Below, one piece after another: positions 3,486 to 17,890 of a stretch of 64,000 bases of DNA. Below the pieces are notes generated by a model. The model saw only the letters and a list, made by a program, of their open reading frames with translations, did not search any database and was not told the DNA's origin. Source of the stretch: Candidatus Staskawiczbacteria bacterium RIFCSPLOWO2_01_FULL_33_13. GTDB lineage: Bacteria; Patescibacteriota; Minisyncoccia; Minisyncoccales; Staskawiczbacteraceae. Each line of letters begins with the position of its first letter. Position 1 is the stretch's first letter. The stretch covers positions 47,039 to 111,038 of the forward strand of contig MHOW01000006.1 of assembly GCA_001820215.1 (NCBI GenBank), read 5' to 3'. A program made the position numbers and the translations under genes.

Positions 3486-4504
3486 CAGAACAAACTCTAG
3501 ATATTTCTTGGAAAACCATACTTAAAATTTTAATTGCCGGTTTTATCTTGTATATGCTTTTTTTAGTAAAAGATATTGTGATTTGGTTTTTCTTTGCATT
3601 AATAATATCGCTTTTAGTTGAGCCGGTAATCAATTTTTTAAGAAGGCTGCACTTTCCAAAAGTAATAGCAGTCGTTTTGGTGTATCTATCAATTTTTGGG
3701 TTGTTAGGCTTGATGATTTACCTTACGGCCCCTATTTTTATTTTTGAAATAAATCAATTATCGCAAAACATTCCTGATTATTTTGAAAAACTCAATCCAG
3801 TATTTAAAAATTTAGGTATTGATGTTGCTAAAAATTTTGAAGATTTTAGCGCAAATTTAATTTCTGGATTGCAAGAAAGTTCTATAAATATTATCAAAGC
3901 CATTTCTGTTTTCTTTGGTGGATTAACTTCTACAGTTTTAATTTTTGTTTTTGCTTTTTATATTTCCTTAGAAGAAAAAGGACCAGAAAGATTCTTATCT
4001 CTTTTGGTCCCCAAAAAGTATGAAGGGTATATTGTAAATATTTTTGAGCGATCTCAATTCCAAGTTTCTGGTTGGTTTGGAGCAAGAATTCTGGCTTGCA
4101 TATTTGTGGGAATTGCCTCTTTTATTGTGTTCTTTTTATTCGGTATTAAGTATGCATTTATTCTTTCTTTAATTTCTGGAGTATTAACCCTTGTACCTTT
4201 CATAGGACCGCTTGTCACTGCTTTATTGGCGCTTTTATTTGTAGGAGCATCTAATTCTTGGTTTTTGGCAGCGTATGTTGTAGTTGCTTTATATATAATC
4301 CAAGTAATAGAAAATAATATTGTTACACCTTTGTTAATGAAAAAATTCTTAGATTTACCGCCTATTTTAGTATTAATATCATTATTAATTGGAGGAACTA
4401 TTTTTGGATTTTTGGGAATGATTTTTGCAGTTCCTGTGTTTGGAATTGTGTACCAGTTTTCAAGAGAATTTTTAATAAAAAAGAGAGAAGAAAATAATTA
4501 TTAG
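3482..4504 (+). CDS. AI-2E family (PerM-like) transporter
   Basis: Multi-TM protein; VPFIGP, QVIENN..TP, GG..FG.LG...AVP motifs. Confidence 0.88.
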   Translation: MTEQTLDISWKTILKILIAGFILYMLFLVKDIVIWFFFALIISLLVEPVINFLRRLHFPKVIAVVLVYLSIFGLLGLMIYLTAPIFIFEINQLSQNIPDYFEKLNPVFKNLGIDVAKNFEDFSANLISGLQESSINIIKAISVFFGGLTSTVLIFVFAFYISLEEKGPERFLSLLVPKKYEGYIVNIFERSQFQVSGWFGARILACIFVGIASFIVFFLFGIKYAFILSLISGVLTLVPFIGPLVTALLALLFVGASNSWFLAAYVVVALYIIQVIENNIVTPLLMKKFLDLPPILVLISLLIGGTIFGFLGMIFAVPVFGIVYQFSREFLIKKREENNY

Positions 4505-5063: not shown

Positions 5064-6494
5064 ATGACAAAAAAATTCTACATTACAACTACCCTACCTT
5101 ATGTAAATGCATCTCCGCATATTGGTTTTGCGATGGAAATAATCCAATCAGATGTTATAGCCCGACATAAACATCAGCAGGGTTTTGAAGTTTTTTTTAA
5201 CATGGGTTCTGACGAACATGGCGTAAAAATATTACGCAAGGCCCAGGAATCCAACATGGAGCCCAAGGCCTATTGCGATATTTATGCCGCCAAGTTTGAC
5301 AATTTAAAAGAAAAACTTAATTTAACTTACAACAACTTTATTCGTACAACTGACGATCATCACATAAAAGCCGCGCAAGAATTTTGGTTGCGGTGCCAAA
5401 AAAATGGTGATATTTATAAAAAAAATTACAAAGTAAAGTATTGCGTAGGTTGTGAATTGGAAAAAACCGATTCTGAACTTGAAAATGGCAAGTGTCCGGT
5501 ACACCCTAATCAGGAAATTGAACTAATAGAAGAAGAGAATTATTTTTTCAAATATTCAAATTATAAAAAACCGCTTTTAGATTTTTACGAAAAAAATCCG
5601 GATTTTGTAGTACCGGCATCACGTTTAAATGAGATTACAGAATTTACCAAAAAAGGATTGGAAGATTTTAGTATTTCAAGATTAAAAGCAAAAATGCCTT
5701 GGGGAGTAGATGTTCCTAATGACCCAAACCATGTAATGTATGTGTGGTTTGACGCCTTAGTTGGGTATATTTCAGCGCTCGGCTGGCCCAATAACGATAA
5801 ACAATTTAATAATTTTTGGCCGGGCATACAGGTTGCAGGAAAAGATAATTTACGCCAGCAATCCAGCATGTGGCAGTCAATGTTGATGTCTGCTGGCCTA
5901 CCTAATTCAAAACAGATTTTTATCCACGGCTTTATTACCGTTAATGGACAAAAAATGTCTAAGTCGCTAGGAAATGTCATTGATCCCTTTGAATTAGTTG
6001 AAAAATACGGGGTTGATGTGATTAGGTATTATTTATTGCGAGAAATTACCCCCACAGAAGATGGTGATTTTACTATTGAAAAACTTGAACAACGATACAA
6101 TTCTGACTTAGCTAGCGGTATAGGAAATTTATTAGCAAGAACAATTACTCTCGCAGTAAAACCAAATTTTGAAGAAAAAAAACCAAGTGCAAAAATAAAG
6201 AAAGAAGCAACTAAGACAAAAAAAATCTGTGAACAATATTTAGAAAATTTTAAATTTAATGATTCTCTAAAATCAATTTGGGAACTGATTACTTTTTGCG
6301 ATAAATACATTAACCAAGAAAAACCGTGGATCGCCAGCAAAAAATCTTCCCAAGTTATTTCTGATATTTTATTTGCATTAGAAGAAATTTCATACCTATT
6401 AAAGCCATTTTTACCAGAAACCTCAGAAAAAATAAAAAATATGCTTAAAAGTAAAACATCAGAGATTTTGTTTCCAAGGCTGTTAAAATCCTAA
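5064..6494 (+). CDS. metG: Methionine--tRNA ligase
   Basis: YITTTLPYVN..PHIG (HIGH-like), YVWFDAL, GKD, KMSKS. Confidence 0.96.
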   Translation: MTKKFYITTTLPYVNASPHIGFAMEIIQSDVIARHKHQQGFEVFFNMGSDEHGVKILRKAQESNMEPKAYCDIYAAKFDNLKEKLNLTYNNFIRTTDDHHIKAAQEFWLRCQKNGDIYKKNYKVKYCVGCELEKTDSELENGKCPVHPNQEIELIEEENYFFKYSNYKKPLLDFYEKNPDFVVPASRLNEITEFTKKGLEDFSISRLKAKMPWGVDVPNDPNHVMYVWFDALVGYISALGWPNNDKQFNNFWPGIQVAGKDNLRQQSSMWQSMLMSAGLPNSKQIFIHGFITVNGQKMSKSLGNVIDPFELVEKYGVDVIRYYLLREITPTEDGDFTIEKLEQRYNSDLASGIGNLLARTITLAVKPNFEEKKPSAKIKKEATKTKKICEQYLENFKFNDSLKSIWELITFCDKYINQEKPWIASKKSSQVISDILFALEEISYLLKPFLPETSEKIKNMLKSKTSEILFPRLLKS

Positions 6495-13096: not shown

Positions 13097-13633
13097 ATGG
13101 TAATTGATTCTTATATTTTTGAATTTATTAATAGTTTTGCGGGAAAATGGCAGTTTTTAGATTTATTGGGAATATTTTTTGCAAAATACTTTGAATATTT
13201 TTTACTGTTTGCCTTAGTTATATTTTTAGTTAAAGATTTTAAAAAATATTGGAAAATGGTGACTGGGGCAGTGTTAGTCGCTTTTTTTGTAAGATTTGTA
13301 TTGGTGGAAATTTTTTATTGGTTACACTTTAGGGCAAGGCCTTTTGCAAACGGCTATATAAAGTCCCTGATTGATTATGATCCAGAAAAAACGGCTTTCC
13401 CCTCAGGCCACGCTTCATTCTATTTTGCGCTATCAACTATTATTTACGGATATAATAAAAAAGCAGGAATCTTATTTTTTATTGGAAGCTTTTTAATTGT
13501 ATTGGCTAGAGTTTTTGTGGGTCTTCATTGGCCATCAGATATTTTAGCCGGAGCAATACTAGGAATTATAATGGGAATAATTTTAAATAAACTATTTAAA
13601 AAAATACTACTTAAAAAACACCTTGATCAATAA
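13097..13633 (+). CDS. PAP2 family phosphatase (undecaprenyl-diphosphatase-like)
   Basis: R.RP, FPSGH, ARVFVGLHWPSD. Confidence 0.88.
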   Translation: MVIDSYIFEFINSFAGKWQFLDLLGIFFAKYFEYFLLFALVIFLVKDFKKYWKMVTGAVLVAFFVRFVLVEIFYWLHFRARPFANGYIKSLIDYDPEKTAFPSGHASFYFALSTIIYGYNKKAGILFFIGSFLIVLARVFVGLHWPSDILAGAILGIIMGIILNKLFKKILLKKHLDQ

Positions 13634-13636
13634 TTC

Positions 13637-13682
13637 CACATACGAAAAAAGAAGAGATTAATCTCTTCTTTTTTCGTATGTG
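13637..13682. terminator. Perfect 46-bp palindrome, bidirectional terminator
   Basis: cacatacgaaaaaagaagagatt|aatctcttcttttttcgtatgtg between convergent PAP2 gene and tRNA. Confidence 0.7.
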
Positions 13683-13764
13683 CCCGAGGTGGGAGTTGAA
13701 CCCACATGATATTGCTATCGCGGGATTTTGAGTCCCGTGCGTCTGCCAATTCCGCCACCCGGGC
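13681..13764 (-). tRNA. tRNA-Leu(CAA), CCA not encoded
   Basis: gcccgggtggcggaattggcagacgcacggga-ct-CAA-aa-tcccg, long variable arm, gtgggttcaactcccac T-arm. Confidence 0.95.
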
Positions 13765-13800
13765 AATTTATGATAAATTTATCATAAATTGATATTCACT

Positions 13801-15843
13801 TCAAGCTTCTTCTTTCTTAAAGTCACAATCTTTACTTGAGCACTTCACTTTTTTAGATTTTGTTTCAACTAATATTAAACCACATGTCGGACAAAACTCA
13901 TTGATTGGCTTATCCCATGCCGCAAAATCACATTTTGGATAATCATCACAACCATAAAATATTTTGCCTCTCCTGGTTTTTTTAGCTACCACCTGCCCCT
14001 TTTTGCATTTTGGACAAATAATATCTATTTTTATTGCCTGCGCTCCCGGATTATCTTTTATAATTGATTCGGTGTGTTTACAATCTGGAAATCCAGTACA
14101 GGCGTAAAATCTACCAAATCGCCCCATTTTATCAACCATATCTTTACCACATTTTGGACATTTTTTATCGGTTTTAATAGTTAAATCTTCTTTTGGAATT
14201 TCATCATATTTTTCTTTCAAATTTTTAGCAAATGGACCATAAAAATCTCCAACGATTTTTTCCCATACATCTTTACCTTCGGCTATTTCATCAAGCCCTT
14301 TTTCCATTTTTGCGGTAAATTCAATATCCACAATTTGCGGAAAATTTTTCACCAGCATTTCATTAACAATAGTTCCCATTTCAGTAGGCGCAAATCTTTT
14401 TTGTTCGTTTTTTGCTATGTAATTGCGGTCTTGTATCGTAGATAAAGTTGGTGCGTAGGTTGAAGGCCTGCCTATTCCATGAGATTCGAGTGCCTTAATC
14501 AGCGAAGCTTCGTTATAGCGGCTAGGAGGCTCGGTATAATGCTGGCTTGGATTTATTTTCACTAATTCCAATATTTCTTTCTCTTGTAATTTTGGCATTT
14601 CATTTTCTGAAAATTTCATCGGATAGATTTTTAAAAAGCCGTCAAATTTAAGCATTTGCCCATTAGCTCCAAAAATATATCCATTTCCCCCATTAATTTC
14701 AATAGAAGTTGAATCAAATATGGCTGGCGTCATTTGCGAGGCAATAAATCTTTGCCAAATTAAAGTATAAAGTTTAAGCTGCGCACCCTCTAATTCACTT
14801 TTCATAGATTCCGGAGTTTTATCCGCATAAGTAGGCCTTATGGCCTCGTGTGCTTCTTGAGCATTACCCTTAGCTTTAAATAGAGTGCCCTTAAAATAAT
14901 CATTGCCAAAAGATTTTTTAATAAACTCTTCAGATGCAATTAAAGAAGATTGGGAAAGATTCAAAGAGTCAGTTCTATGATAAGTAATATGCCCCTGCTC
15001 ATATAGTTTTTGAGCAACCGACATGGTCATTTTTGCAGTAAAATGGAATTTATTAGCCGCAGTTTGCTGCATGGTGCTTGTAGTAAATGGCGGCAGAGGA
15101 TTTCTTTTTGTTTCTTTTTTAGTAATTTTTTCTATTTGATACTTTGCGTTTTCTAAACCGACTAAAATTTCATCAGCATGTTTTTTATTTTTTATCTCTA
15201 GTTTATCAATAATTTTTCCGTCTTTTTTAATTAAAAAAGCAGAAAAATTTTTATTTTCCTTATTAAAGATTGCCTCAATCTCCCAATATTCCTCTGCAAT
15301 AAATTTTTTAATTTCTTCTTCTCGCTCAACTACTAATCGCACCGCCACTGATTGCACGCGCCCAGCAGAAAGCCCTTTTGATATTTTTTTCCATAAAAAA
15401 GGGGATAATTTATACCCCACAATTCTATCTAAAACCCTGCGGGCTTGTTGAGCATCTACCAAGTGCATATCTATCTTTCCAGGTGTTTTTAGAGCCTCTG
15501 CAATAGCGCTTTTAGTAATTTCGTGGAATACAATTCTTTTTGGATCTTTTAAATTCAGGGCCTCCGCCAAATGCCATGAAATAGATTCTCCTTCGCGATC
15601 TTGGTCAGTTGCTAAAATAACCTCATCAGCTAGTTTTGCCTCCTTCTTTAATTCAGCAATAACTTTTTTGGCTTTTGTAGGAATTACATATTTAGGCTCA
15701 AAGTTTTTTTCAACATTCACACCAAGTTCGCGTTTTGGTAAATCGCGCACATGACCAAAAGAAGCCACTACTTTATAGTTTTTTCCTAAAAAGCGGCTGA
15801 TTGTGCGTCCCTTGGTTGGGCTCTCCACCACAAGTAAAATCAT
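13801..15843 (-). CDS. topA: DNA topoisomerase I with C-terminal zinc ribbons
   Basis: VESP.K, GHVRDL, ATD.DREGE, SAGRVQS, ITYHRTDS, QEAHEAIRPT, GIGRPSTY. Confidence 0.97.
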   Translation of the reverse strand: MILLVVESPTKGRTISRFLGKNYKVVASFGHVRDLPKRELGVNVEKNFEPKYVIPTKAKKVIAELKKEAKLADEVILATDQDREGESISWHLAEALNLKDPKRIVFHEITKSAIAEALKTPGKIDMHLVDAQQARRVLDRIVGYKLSPFLWKKISKGLSAGRVQSVAVRLVVEREEEIKKFIAEEYWEIEAIFNKENKNFSAFLIKKDGKIIDKLEIKNKKHADEILVGLENAKYQIEKITKKETKRNPLPPFTTSTMQQTAANKFHFTAKMTMSVAQKLYEQGHITYHRTDSLNLSQSSLIASEEFIKKSFGNDYFKGTLFKAKGNAQEAHEAIRPTYADKTPESMKSELEGAQLKLYTLIWQRFIASQMTPAIFDSTSIEINGGNGYIFGANGQMLKFDGFLKIYPMKFSENEMPKLQEKEILELVKINPSQHYTEPPSRYNEASLIKALESHGIGRPSTYAPTLSTIQDRNYIAKNEQKRFAPTEMGTIVNEMLVKNFPQIVDIEFTAKMEKGLDEIAEGKDVWEKIVGDFYGPFAKNLKEKYDEIPKEDLTIKTDKKCPKCGKDMVDKMGRFGRFYACTGFPDCKHTESIIKDNPGAQAIKIDIICPKCKKGQVVAKKTRRGKIFYGCDDYPKCDFAAWDKPINEFCPTCGLILVETKSKKVKCSSKDCDFKKEEA

Positions 15844-16949
15844 TTTGAAAATTTATTAATAATATTATATTTATGTATTCCCAGTGCTGAAGCTTTGTGC
15901 TGAATTTCTTGCCATTTTCTACCGGGAAATAGGGATAATAGTTTACTTTTCGGATATGTTCTATAAAACTTTCGTATAATTTCTTCCTCTTCTTTTGTGT
16001 AACCCTTTCTGTATCTTATTTCTACCAGAGAGGCTCTTTGGGCAAGTTTAAATTTCCTTTTAATGTATAGTGTAGAATTCGTGTAAAGATAATCTATTAG
16101 AGTTTTTGCTGAATTTGACCTATACGCTATATAAAAAAGAAACTGACTATTTTCATCTTTTTTTACGCTACATATTTTTGAATAAAGATTAAATGTATTA
16201 AGAAAATGATTCTGTATAAAAGTTATAGTATTTTTCCCTCCGCAAACACTTATGGTGGGGTGATTTCTTTTATCGAAATAAATGCTACCATCACCATCTA
16301 TAACACCTCGTATGAAATCTTTTATATATTCGCGGGGAACAATTGGAACATTTTCCCTTAAACTTTTCCTATATATAATACCCAATTTCTTAAGATCATC
16401 GACAATTATCTGACTAGTTATGCCGAGGTGAAAGGCATTTAGAGAAGGAGAAATTTTGTGGTTTGAAGATAATTCTTTTTTTATTTTTTCTAAAATATCA
16501 ATATCTCTTTTCTGTACTCCAAACTTCAAAGCATCACTATAACCCTTGTATATTCCTTTGACAATACATCCATCAGCCAGAATAAAACCAAGAATATAGG
16601 CCATTTCAGAAGACCATGTTTTAAAATAATTTTCATTAACCGCTAATCGGGGGTGGTTTCTGTTTTGTTTTAATCCCAATCTTTCTCCTTGTGCCCATAT
16701 AGCAGTTTTAGACCTTCTGGGTAAAAATTTTAAAAGTTCTTGTATGTTATGGGTGGGGAAATACTTGTGCAATATTTTATTATCTTTTAATTGCCATAAC
16801 TTTGCCGAAGGAAGCCTTAAGCTTAATGCCTTTGCAACAATGGTAGGTTTAGTTCGATCGGGAAACATTGTAATTAAATCACTTACCCTTTTTACTGGAT
16901 AATATTCTTTCAGGAGAGCAATTTCTTTTTGTGACCATATTCTACTCAT
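15840..16949 (-). CDS. Free-standing two-motif LAGLIDADG endonuclease with Myb/SANT-like repeats
   Basis: YILGFILADG and FIRGVIDGDG motifs; W(S/Q)..E..L..Y(Y/F)P-type repeats at the N-terminus, one degenerate copy at the C-terminus; ATGA overlap with topA. Confidence 0.85.
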   Translation of the reverse strand: MSRIWSQKEIALLKEYYPVKRVSDLITMFPDRTKPTIVAKALSLRLPSAKLWQLKDNKILHKYFPTHNIQELLKFLPRRSKTAIWAQGERLGLKQNRNHPRLAVNENYFKTWSSEMAYILGFILADGCIVKGIYKGYSDALKFGVQKRDIDILEKIKKELSSNHKISPSLNAFHLGITSQIIVDDLKKLGIIYRKSLRENVPIVPREYIKDFIRGVIDGDGSIYFDKRNHPTISVCGGKNTITFIQNHFLNTFNLYSKICSVKKDENSQFLFYIAYRSNSAKTLIDYLYTNSTLYIKRKFKLAQRASLVEIRYRKGYTKEEEEIIRKFYRTYPKSKLLSLFPGRKWQEIQHKASALGIHKYNIINKFSK

Positions 16950-16961
16950 GCCCTCATTATA

Positions 16962-16997
16962 CTATAATTTTGGGCTTTCTACTATCACTAAATCCAT
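16962..16997 (-). pseudogene. Truncated relic of topA 5' end (MDLVIVESPKL*)
   Basis: ATG GAT TTA GTG ATA GTA GAA AGC CCA AAA TTA TAG, 29 nt after the dprA stop; matches TOPRIM LVIVESP. Confidence 0.8.
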
Positions 16998-17026
16998 ATT
17001 TTTTTAATTTGATATTTAAAAATTAT

Positions 17027-17890
17027 TTATACAATAGTATATACATTGCCGCCTAGGTTTCGTATCTTACCCGAAATTTCCATTAAGGCAAGTGAAGTTA
17101 CTACTAAAGAAGCATTTAGTTTTGTTTTCTCAATTATTTTGTCAATATATAACGCTTCTTCTTTTAGTGCGGCGAAAATAAGCTGTTCTTGCATATTTTC
17201 GGACGCAAAAATTTTTTGGGAAACTTTCTCTGCCTCAACTCCCAATACATCTAAAATATCTTTTGAACTTTCAACCAGTGTTGCCCCCTCTTTTATTAAT
17301 TTATTCGGGCCCTGTGAATTCAACGAAAAAATTTGGCCGGGTACCGCAAATAATTTCTTTTTTTGTTTTATTGCATAATTTGCGGTAATTAATGATCCTG
17401 ATTTCTGCTTTGCCTCAACGACCAAAACTCCCAAAGACAATGCTGATATTATTCTGTTTCTTTTGGGAAAAGAAAAAACAGATCCGTGTGTGCCAGGTGG
17501 TAGCTCCGAAATTAAACAACCATGATTTTCAATTATTTTTCTTGATAATTCTAAGTTTTGCTGGGGGTATATGCTTTTTTCATCTAATCCTGTGCCTAAC
17601 ACCGCAATGGTTATTTTCTTTTTTTCAATGCAAATTTTATGAGCAAAAGTATCTATGCCGGGCGCCATTCCTGAAACAATAACTAATCCTGCATCCACTA
17701 ATTCTCCTGTAATCTGTAAGGTTGCTTGCTGACCATACAAAGAAGGACGCCTTGTCCCAACAATCCCAAAACAATTTTCATTTTTTGGTAAACTTCCTCT
17801 ATGATACAAAACTTTAGGCGCATCAGGAATTTTTTTTAATAATTCCGGATAACTTTTATCATTTATTGAAATTTCCTGTATGTCTTCCAT
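17027..17890 (-). CDS. dprA: DNA-protecting protein DprA
   Basis: IVGTR, VSG.A.GID..AH, FP.RNRII, VEA...SGSLITA, C-terminal wHTH. Confidence 0.95.
   Translation of the reverse strand: MEDIQEISINDKSYPELLKKIPDAPKVLYHRGSLPKNENCFGIVGTRRPSLYGQQATLQITGELVDAGLVIVSGMAPGIDTFAHKICIEKKKITIAVLGTGLDEKSIYPQQNLELSRKIIENHGCLISELPPGTHGSVFSFPKRNRIISALSLGVLVVEAKQKSGSLITANYAIKQKKKLFAVPGQIFSLNSQGPNKLIKEGATLVESSKDILDVLGVEAEKVSQKIFASENMQEQLIFAALKEEALYIDKIIEKTKLNASLVVTSLALMEISGKIRNLGGNVYTIV

Follow-up and report, generated by a model that had tools for sequence, protein, structure and literature searches.

In a 64,000-nucleotide stretch of the genome of Candidatus Staskawiczbacteria bacterium RIFCSPLOWO2_01_FULL_33_13 (assembly GCA_001820215.1, contig MHOW01000006.1, positions 47,039–111,038; hereafter designated the window), we found a LAGLIDADG homing endonuclease gene (HEG) that appears to lie inside the first 10–11 codons of the DNA topoisomerase I gene topA, between a dead remnant of the original gene start (the stub) and an intact second start (the working start). 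We put the probability of this reading, in which the inserted unit (the cassette) likely spreads by homing, at about 0.8. The cassette is made up of a short junction containing a −10-like box, the endonuclease open reading frame (ORF), and a copy of topA codons 1–11. In the following, G000 denotes the source genome, other G-numbers the compared genomes, and L-numbers the compared loci or contigs.

Stubs at the resident position of the topA start

In G000, the stub reads ATG GAT TTA GTG ATA GTA GAA AGC CCA AAA TTA TAG, and its topA-derived stretch extends from the ATG to about CCA A (16970–16997). In seven relatives of the same genus that lack the insert, dprA abuts topA with a gap of 6–70 nt; the G000 stub, lying 29 nt after dprA, thus matches the position of the topA start in these relatives. 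Moreover, over codons 1–9, six of the seven empty alleles are nearer to the stub (19–23 of 27 nt identical, versus 15–18 of 27 with the working start), none is nearer to the working start, and one is a tie. Among all 22 genus alleles, 14 are nearer to the stub, 6 to the working start (G020 among these), and 2 are ties. Because of the match of 19–23 nt to the relatives, and because the same layout recurs in 33 of 48 loci (see below), the stub is judged from these comparisons to be more than a chance resemblance to a topA start.

The endonuclease also occurs in another genome of the genus, G010, where a 69%-identical version immediately precedes topA and the stub reads ATG AAT TTA GTT ATT GTA GAA AGC CCC ACT TAA. 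The DNA of the two loci is alignable exactly from the stub ATG, upstream of which lies dprA in G000 and an unrelated gene in G010; in G007, which lacks the HEG, a few bases lie between the end of this same upstream gene and the start of topA. With such different neighbors, the stub therefore occupies the resident topA start position in both genomes. Carriers amount to 2 of 26 genomes within the genus, and a phylum sample of 401 genomes, G000 included, yielded no close homologue in any of the 400 others.

Further homologues came from two collections. Among the genome contigs scanned, there were five close endonuclease homologues (55–60% identity), all in metagenome-assembled genomes of the Patescibacteria type; a scan of metagenome contigs by means of an alignment gave 99 relatives, of which 80 were retained (71 close and 9 distant). 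Residue 1–3 of topA directly follows the endonuclease in 61 of the 76 close homologues (5/5 genome contigs and 56/71 metagenome contigs), the remaining 15 contigs running out within 108 nt. In 60 of these loci, topA query residue 1–3 is placed at −1 to +56 nt from the end of the endonuclease match, and L090 was added by translation. None of the nine distant homologues adjoins topA. The junction is tight: in 37 of 39 non-redundant loci, the endonuclease stop is located at most 38 nt into topA or at most 9 nt ahead of its ATG.

Stubs were searched for in 48 non-redundant loci with at least 70 nt of upstream sequence, by means of a motif over codons 3–7 followed by picking by eye; columns outside this motif are unbiased by the detection. 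A stub was recognized in 33 loci, 28–66 nt before the endonuclease ATG, and no recognizable stub was present in 15, some of which have deletions into dprA or the endonuclease (L110, L119). At aligned codon 1, ATG is retained in 15/33 stubs versus 41/47 working starts, the remaining 6 of which have extra N-terminal codons. Likewise, all 47 working starts retain Ser8, Pro9, and Lys11, versus 20, 27, and 5 of the 33 stubs, respectively. These patterns indicate that the stubs are decaying, pseudogene-like gene fragments and not a first exon, for which they would be unfit because they are decayed and have kept the ATG in only 15 cases. The junction had been placed directly after VESP in an initial annotation of this DNA; the family comparison moves it one or two codons further on, to a point after codon 10–11 (ESPT/K), stub codon 10 being ACN in 24/33 and codon 11 at most one base from AAA or AAG in 24/31, with cassette sequence from stub codon 12 onward. 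The Thr codon has been lost from the G000 stub. Outside the 33, a stub ATG around position 827 of L081 (ATG AAC CTT GTT...) is apparently in frame with the endonuclease ORF, making a stub–endonuclease fusion.

The initial annotation had proposed an insertion in the topA start that supplies a replacement start, and had anticipated that the empty starts of relatives would resemble the stub rather than the working start and that homologues would carry duplicated starts. All of this is supported by the stub-like empty alleles (6/7, with one tie), the adjacency in 61/76 homologues, and the duplicated starts in 33/48 loci. Its coordinates, mini-ORF, TATAAT hexamer, and ATGA overlap were likewise reproduced on the minus strand, and the codon differences that it had listed between the two copies of VESP were exact.

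Co-variation of the working start with the endonuclease

In G000, topA begins MILLVVESPTKGRTIS, and a topA orthologue was present in all 41 genomes searched. The G000 working start is identical to the stub at 20 of 28 nt (hand count), and the mean identity between the stub and the working start of the same locus is 0.58 (n = 25). Codon 5 encodes Ile in 31/33 stubs and in 17/21 HEG-less genus alleles, and Leu in 24/47 endonuclease-adjacent working starts.

The working start directly adjoins the endonuclease, and sequence comparisons show that the two co-vary across the family. This was analyzed by regression of the pairwise similarity of short topA segments on endonuclease similarity and host similarity, using 300 label permutations. 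With topA residues 21–160 as the host reference (36 loci), the endonuclease term for the six codons before the conserved Glu was 0.051, a value reached in 0 of 300 permutations, and the host term was −0.004 (p 0.6). Comparable results were obtained with topA codons 200–600 as a cleaner host reference (24 loci), where the endonuclease term for the same six codons was 0.033 (p 0.003) and the host term 0.006 (not significant). In the latter regression, the endonuclease term was also significant for codons E+0..120 (p ≤0.03) and nil beyond, where the host term alone remained. Such a pattern is expected from co-conversion tracts of varying length, which this zone of topA likely reflects. A regression with a short, 65-residue host reference showed a host-relatedness confound and was set aside.

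Two candidate marks of recoding in the working start were dropped. The first 60 nt of topA contain 29 G+C (0.483), which places them in the top 5.4% of the 60-nt segments of the gene and in the top 2.5% of those of the window. The GC-rich start noted in the initial annotation is thus correct as a count for G000 and fails as a general feature, since the start G+C is 0.37 in the HEG carrier G010 and reaches 0.52 in the HEG-less G007. The use of GAG in place of GAA at the catalytic Glu, considered as a mark of resistance to cleavage, was abandoned because GAG occurs in nine HEG-less alleles of the genus and order.

Some topA genes of the comparison set are irregular in their own right. In the metagenome contig L074, topA residues 1–107 lie at 3596–3964 and residues 79–264 only at 5522–6079, so that about 1.5 kb, possibly a second mobile insert, interrupts the gene. 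The topA match of L025 (G020) is broken into two pieces around residue 96–99 by about 50 extra bases; one stop was counted for the longer of these, although the frame reads as open. A similar split is seen near residue 102–133 in L113. From about position 1230 to the end of L090, 31 good TopA residues are followed by an unrelated Ala/Glu-rich frame, and either a chimeric contig or a rearranged topA is possible.

Search for splicing elements

Rfam searches of positions 13500–17500 at E values up to 1 gave no intron and only the tRNA downstream of topA (13681–13764, minus strand), and those of 16 related loci at the gathering score gave only tRNAs, with no group I or group II intron. The stub stop and the endonuclease ATG are just 12 nt apart, and the end of the ORF lies within topA; thus, there is no non-coding room for a ribozyme. 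An intein is excluded by the stop after the stub, the ORF's own ATG, and its end out of frame with topA. The term "intron-less", as originally applied to this insertion, is therefore supported by the lack of intron-model matches in the region and the 16 related loci and by the decay of the stubs. Of the 14 public runs in which the stretch is present, none was listed as an RNA run.

The endonuclease protein

Sequence alignment and structure modeling were used to characterize the endonuclease. LAGLIDADG_3 of Pfam is matched by 28 of 29 family members at E ≤0.01 (best, 9.6e-9). Among 29 aligned homologues, Asp126 and Gly127 of the first LAGLIDADG motif and Asp218, Gly219, and Asp220 of the second are invariant. 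An AlphaFold2 model calculated from the 29-sequence alignment has a mean predicted local distance difference test score (pLDDT) of 87.9, and its core (residues 114–308) consists of two alpha-beta-beta-alpha-beta-beta-alpha domains packed via the motif helices. A Foldseek search of the PDB with this model gave 141 matches at E ≤0.001, and the 46 among the matches listed are without exception LAGLIDADG homing endonucleases or maturases, some of them intein-borne; the best matches have E values of 1.8e-8 to 1e-6, target-normalized TM-scores of 0.33–0.61, and sequence identities of 10–22%. The predicted core fold matches those of I-OnuI (3qqy, 6bda), I-Tsp061I (2dch), and PI-PfuI (1dq3). With its fold confirmed at the level of the model, the ORF is assigned as a monomeric, double-motif LAGLIDADG homing endonuclease, for which site-specific cleavage is predicted.

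Unlike I-OnuI and the other solved enzymes, the model has three three-helix modules flanking the core, which share the motif W..E...L...Y/FP......L...FP.R.K..I..KA..L.L. The N-terminal modules have a weak, sub-threshold match to Pfam MTH865 (E 2.6e-4), and the C-terminal module matches Myb_DNA-binding below the cut-off (E 0.0082). On the basis of the model, these modules are likely extra DNA-binding domains. The C-terminal module is missing from the homologues of G010, L044, and L046.

Movement and decay of the cassette

An alignment of topA from 25 loci with a long topA sequence rejects two well-supported endonuclease clades in approximately unbiased tests (p-AU 8.9e-5 and 0.009), and two further endonuclease clades are shared with the topA tree of the same loci. 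Pairwise identities of the endonuclease and topA also include discordant pairs in both directions. These conflicts indicate that the inheritance of the endonuclease is partly horizontal across the family.

Traces of loss are also present. In HEG-less G003, a 27-nt scrap of an endonuclease 3' end, 93% identical to that of L058, lies directly before topA, together with L058's unusual extended start. In HEG-less G020, 22/22 nt of the last codons of the G000 endonuclease are followed by MILLLVESP. Truncated endonucleases were found in G010, L044, and L046, and in L046 (2971–6078) an N-terminally truncated remnant continues into topA as a single open frame of 1,035 codons, uninterrupted by any stop. 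The intact copies, truncated forms, and scraps thus correspond to stages of the usual life cycle of a homing endonuclease, in which the imported start appears to outlive the endonuclease.

Predicted expression signals and locus anatomy

In 20 of 47 non-redundant loci, a hexamer matching TATAAT in at least 5 of 6 positions lies with its end exactly 6 nt upstream of the endonuclease ATG, and a TGn extension is present in 19 of 25 loci with a TATAAT-like hexamer ending 4–10 nt before the ATG. With this −10 geometry, transcripts are predicted to have the A of the ATG as their first base and thus to be leaderless. The Val-Glu codons of the stub provide a candidate −35 box, TTGAAA or TAGAAA, 17–18 nt before the −10 box in 10 of the 21 loci where the latter lies six nt from the ATG. 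In G000 itself, TATAAT is at the right distance with no TGn and no good −35 box (2/6 matches, with a spacer 3 nt shorter), and transcription by read-through from dprA is as likely. A promoter scan of the single sequence gave 15 sites versus 18.8 expected from shuffled sequences, and thus no support when taken alone. In loci with a 51-nt type of stub (L045, L085, L087, L096, L104, L043, L108), the Val-Glu codons read GTTGAAA, with a near-consensus −35 TTGAAA, 17 nt before TGnTATAAT; such a −35 role may account for the conservation of these codons in stubs that have otherwise decayed. The features of the G000 locus are collected in Table 1.

Table 1. Features of the topA locus of G000 (positions in the window).
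Feature	Position	Strand	Remarks
dprA	17890..17027	−	Stop TAA at 17029–17027; Pfam DNA_processg_A (E 3.9e-74) and DprA_WH; native upstream neighbor of topA
Stub of topA start: 12-codon mini-ORF MDLVIVESPKL*	16997..16962	−	29 nt past the dprA stop
TATAAT hexamer	16961..16956	−	Ends 6 nt upstream of the endonuclease start codon; predicted −10 box of a promoter carried by the cassette
LAGLIDADG ORF, free-standing, double-motif, 369 aa	16949..15840	−	
Two N-terminal three-helix modules, residues 7–43 and 54–90	16680..16931	−	From the structure model
LAGLIDADG motif 1, LGFILADG, residues 120–127	16569..16592	−	Acidic residue D126
LAGLIDADG motif 2, FIRGVIDGDG, residues 212–221	16287..16316	−	Acidic residue D220
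C-terminal (third) three-helix module, Myb-like, residues 319–355	15885..15995	−	From the structure model
ATGA overlap	15840..15843	−	Endonuclease TGA and topA ATG
Replacement start, working topA codons 1–11, MILLVVESPTK	15811..15843	−	Duplicate of the stub
topA zone co-varying with the endonuclease, about the first 120 codons after Glu	15465..15810	−	Family average; limits are not those of G000 itself
topA, 680 aa, intact	15843..13801	−	Pfam Toprim, Topoisom_bac (E 4.7e-127), and Zn_ribbon_Top1

Proposed mechanism and alternative explanations

In the mechanism that we propose, the enzyme would cut an unoccupied topA near codons 8–13, within the conserved coding sequence of the Toprim peptide VESPTK, and repair of the break from an occupied allele would transfer the endonuclease gene together with the replacement start and a 5' stretch of the donor topA of variable length (up to about 120 codons), leaving the recipient's own first codons stranded upstream. 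Thereafter, topA would be translated from the new start by coupling to the endonuclease stop, and in many family members transcription would proceed from the extended −10 box of the cassette at the endonuclease ATG as a leaderless mRNA. The occupied allele would escape re-cutting, the site being split by the insert and the new copy being spelled differently, and the endonuclease would later decay or be deleted while the imported topA start stays. We lean only slightly toward a stronger version of this scheme, in which the unit would be a self-contained start-replacement cassette, with an extended −10 promoter of its own, a leaderless gene, and a spare start coupled to that gene, that needs no splicing and repeatedly overwrites up to about 120 topA codons across the Patescibacteria, the imported N-termini outlasting the endonuclease.

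Several observations weigh against the favored reading. For the clade of the genus (G000, G010, L057, L060), the topA data do not contradict the endonuclease tree (p-AU 0.16), and the cassette may simply have been inherited vertically there. The G000 topA, from VESP on, is closest throughout its length to that of G003, the nearest relative of G000 overall, and the G010 topA is not especially close to it in the 5' part. Although a similarity breakpoint delimiting the replaced segment had been anticipated, a sliding-window comparison of the G000 topA with 22 genus alleles revealed none, and neither an imported tract nor a donor for G000. The spelling differences between stubs and working starts are not exclusive, as 5/47 working starts read LVIVE like the stubs, apart from the GAG codon of the nine HEG-less alleles already mentioned. 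Conservation of codons 3–7 of the stubs is partly built into their detection, and the pairs in the regressions are non-independent, so that endonuclease identity may partly be a less noisy proxy of host relatedness. As for the protein, the G000 sequence itself falls just below the Pfam cut-offs (22.0 bits versus 22.5 for LAGLIDADG_3, and 18.4 versus 23.1 for LAGLIDADG_1), and a sequence-profile search of the PDB gave no match. Finally, no joint skipping the endonuclease, as would mark a HEG-less allele, was found in the contigs of runs X7, X8, X9, and X13 that fall on 15000–17800; the few joints in these four runs have short sides (21–48 nt) and are located elsewhere.

Some of these points would be accommodated by an ordinary intergenic, free-standing endonuclease gene, with a native working start and a stub that is either an unrelated small duplication or a piece of topA from a previous host that was carried along on the 5' flank of the element. 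The proximity of the G000 topA to that of G003 right up to the VESP codons, the agreement of the two trees within the genus clade, and the MILL-type starts of HEG-less G001 and G004, where no endonuclease remnant was seen, would all be in accordance with it. We nevertheless consider this improbable, since the stub occupies the position of the native start both after dprA in G000 and after another gene in G010, the dprA-adjacent empty alleles resemble the stub and not the working start, the first six working codons track the endonuclease and not the topA body, and the MILL start of G020 is fused to a scrap of an endonuclease 3' end. A little less probable still is a domesticated resident gene, whose product would no longer home and would be kept for a role as partner or regulator in topA expression, with the stub as an old scar. 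The ORFs are intact, both residues at catalytic positions are conserved across hosts whose TopA proteins are only 50–60% identical, the tight overlap with topA is nearly universal (37/39), and inheritance within the genus looks vertical, as would be expected after domestication. Against this stand the sporadic distribution (0/400 other genomes of the phylum sample and 2/26 in the genus), the existence of truncated forms and deleted remnants, the rejection of two endonuclease clades by topA, and the endonuclease-linked topA tract that fades with distance, as repeated homing would give.

A group I or other self-splicing intron, or an intein, with the stub serving as exon 1 joined to topA at the RNA or protein level, is very improbable. 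It is true that the stub through VESP, if joined to TKGRT..., would make a perfect TopA N-terminus, and that bacteria of the candidate phyla radiation (CPR) abound in rRNA introns bearing LAGLIDADG endonucleases, according to the available text of PMC11270868. No intron model matches the locus, however, where there is no room for a ribozyme and where stops and the frame change exclude an intein; furthermore, 18/33 stubs lack the ATG and invariant Ser or Pro residues are changed in stubs, while the working start is intact in 47/47 loci. Least credible of all is an artefact of assembly or binning that joined unrelated pieces. Such a cause comes to mind because the G000 assembly is a metagenome-derived draft (about 0.7 Mb in 27 contigs), yet both cassette junctions are bridged by independent contigs of other public runs (in run X7, record 14 spans 16047–17800 with 1 difference and record 9 spans 15020–15996), showing that the layout is not an assembly artefact, and the identical layout occurs in dozens of unrelated contigs.

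Distant relatives and neighboring genes

At the loci of distant relatives (33–45% identity; L033–L041, L047–L056, and L128–L136), a duplicated start of a neighboring gene was looked for and none was found. Repeats exceeding those in shuffled sequences at L033, L050, and L054 are tRNA sequences, ARAGORN identifying complete tRNA genes on either side of the ORF at these three loci, and that at L130 is an overlap artefact. At L050, L054, L033, and L053 (34–45% identity), the ORFs are free-standing in tRNA clusters of the order tRNA-Met, tRNA-Met, ORF, tRNA-Asp, where the LAGLIDADG ORF fills the gap between complete tRNA genes. In G017 (L040/L014), a LAGLIDADG-like ORF with 28–32% identity begins right at the tRNA-Leu downstream of topA; its counterpart in the window, the tRNA gene at 13681–13764, has no LAGLIDADG-like neighbor.

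Between dprA and topA, many genus members have a conserved ORF of about 175 aa (MK.xLTDKFLWD...VKIFLIEEI), as at L004, L008, L009, L015, L021, and L025, and also at L003 and L006. It lies just upstream of the endonuclease remnant in G003 and G020, and may resemble PaaX or Cas2.

Comparison with known systems

Among known systems, the closest is the fungal mitochondrial mORF, in which a LAGLIDADG or GIY-YIG ORF enters the 3' part of a gene together with a foreign copy of the C-terminus and leaves the native C-terminus stranded downstream, as exemplified by Allomyces macrogynus atp6, Glomus sp. atp6, atp9, cox2, and nad3, Rhizopus atp9, and Mortierella cox2 (PMC3630166, in the part of the paper that was available). 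As far as that part describes the mORF, it is, like the topA insert, an intron-less endonuclease ORF within a protein-coding gene; both carry a differently spelled, in-frame copy of the displaced gene end, both leave the native end as a relic, and the mechanism proposed for the mORF is break repair after endonuclease cleavage, as we infer for the topA cassette. The mORF is, however, at the 3' end of organellar genes and the topA cassette at the 5' end of an essential bacterial chromosomal gene; owing to this placement, the latter has to supply a start codon and signals for translation as well, and many copies include a predicted promoter. The topA endonuclease also has three extra Myb-like three-helix modules, unlike what is described for the fungal mORF. 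The inserted end of the mORF is phylogenetically foreign; for the topA cassette, a family-level signal of foreign origin is present, and no donor or breakpoint was found for G000. By analogy, the topA cassette can be regarded as a mirror image of the mORF, that is, a variant of the mORF kind and not a member of it.

Mitochondrial elements of Tremella fuciformis carry duplicates of host-gene fragments, leading to partial gene replacement by foreign sequence, and are, like the topA cassette, endonuclease-associated mobile inserts with a duplicated part of a host gene; as described in the available text, they are introns or downstream elements with mixed RNA evidence and concern no bacterial gene start (PMC7315562). 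In CPR bacteria, rRNA genes contain group I introns with LAGLIDADG endonucleases, I-ShaI and its relatives, and the available text of the report mentions neither topoisomerase nor free-standing copies (PMC11270868). Judging from that text, the I-ShaI group shares with the topA cassette the phylum, the enzyme family, and the homing into a highly conserved sequence, and differs in residing in self-splicing rRNA introns, no ribozyme having been found at the topA cassette.

In T-even and other phages, the seg and mob endonucleases ("intronless homing") are stand-alone ORFs adjoining the target gene and spread by double-strand-break repair with co-conversion, and the topA cassette is similar to these in having a stand-alone endonuclease ORF beside its target gene. 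Such phage elements are found between genes or divide a gene into two functional polypeptides, and we know of no phage free-standing endonuclease for which restoration of the invaded gene through a duplicated start has been described. Free-standing phage endonucleases are mentioned in general terms in the review PMC8393795. A phage-type placement between intact genes was rejected for topA, as the stub puts the insertion point inside the topA reading frame. No published description of the topA endonuclease element was found in the literature searched, which did not cover subscription-only papers.

Biological significance

To our knowledge, homing endonucleases are thought to persist in essential genes only within self-splicing introns or inteins. 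The topA cassette would represent a third solution, in bacteria, in which the insert rebuilds the gene by means of a spare start, many of the copies also providing a predicted promoter. It would explain the mosaic 5' ends of topA in ultra-small bacteria, and its intact copies, truncated copies, and 22–27-nt scraps form a natural record of invasion, decay, and loss. For genome annotation, it serves as a warning that a short ORF and an "intergenic" endonuclease may be parts of one event. The family may also provide new compact meganuclease scaffolds with extra Myb-like modules, the target of which would be readable from the stub and the downstream gene. If the proposed mechanism is true, the start-replacement cassette would be an unrecognized route for the transfer of gene segments into core genes.

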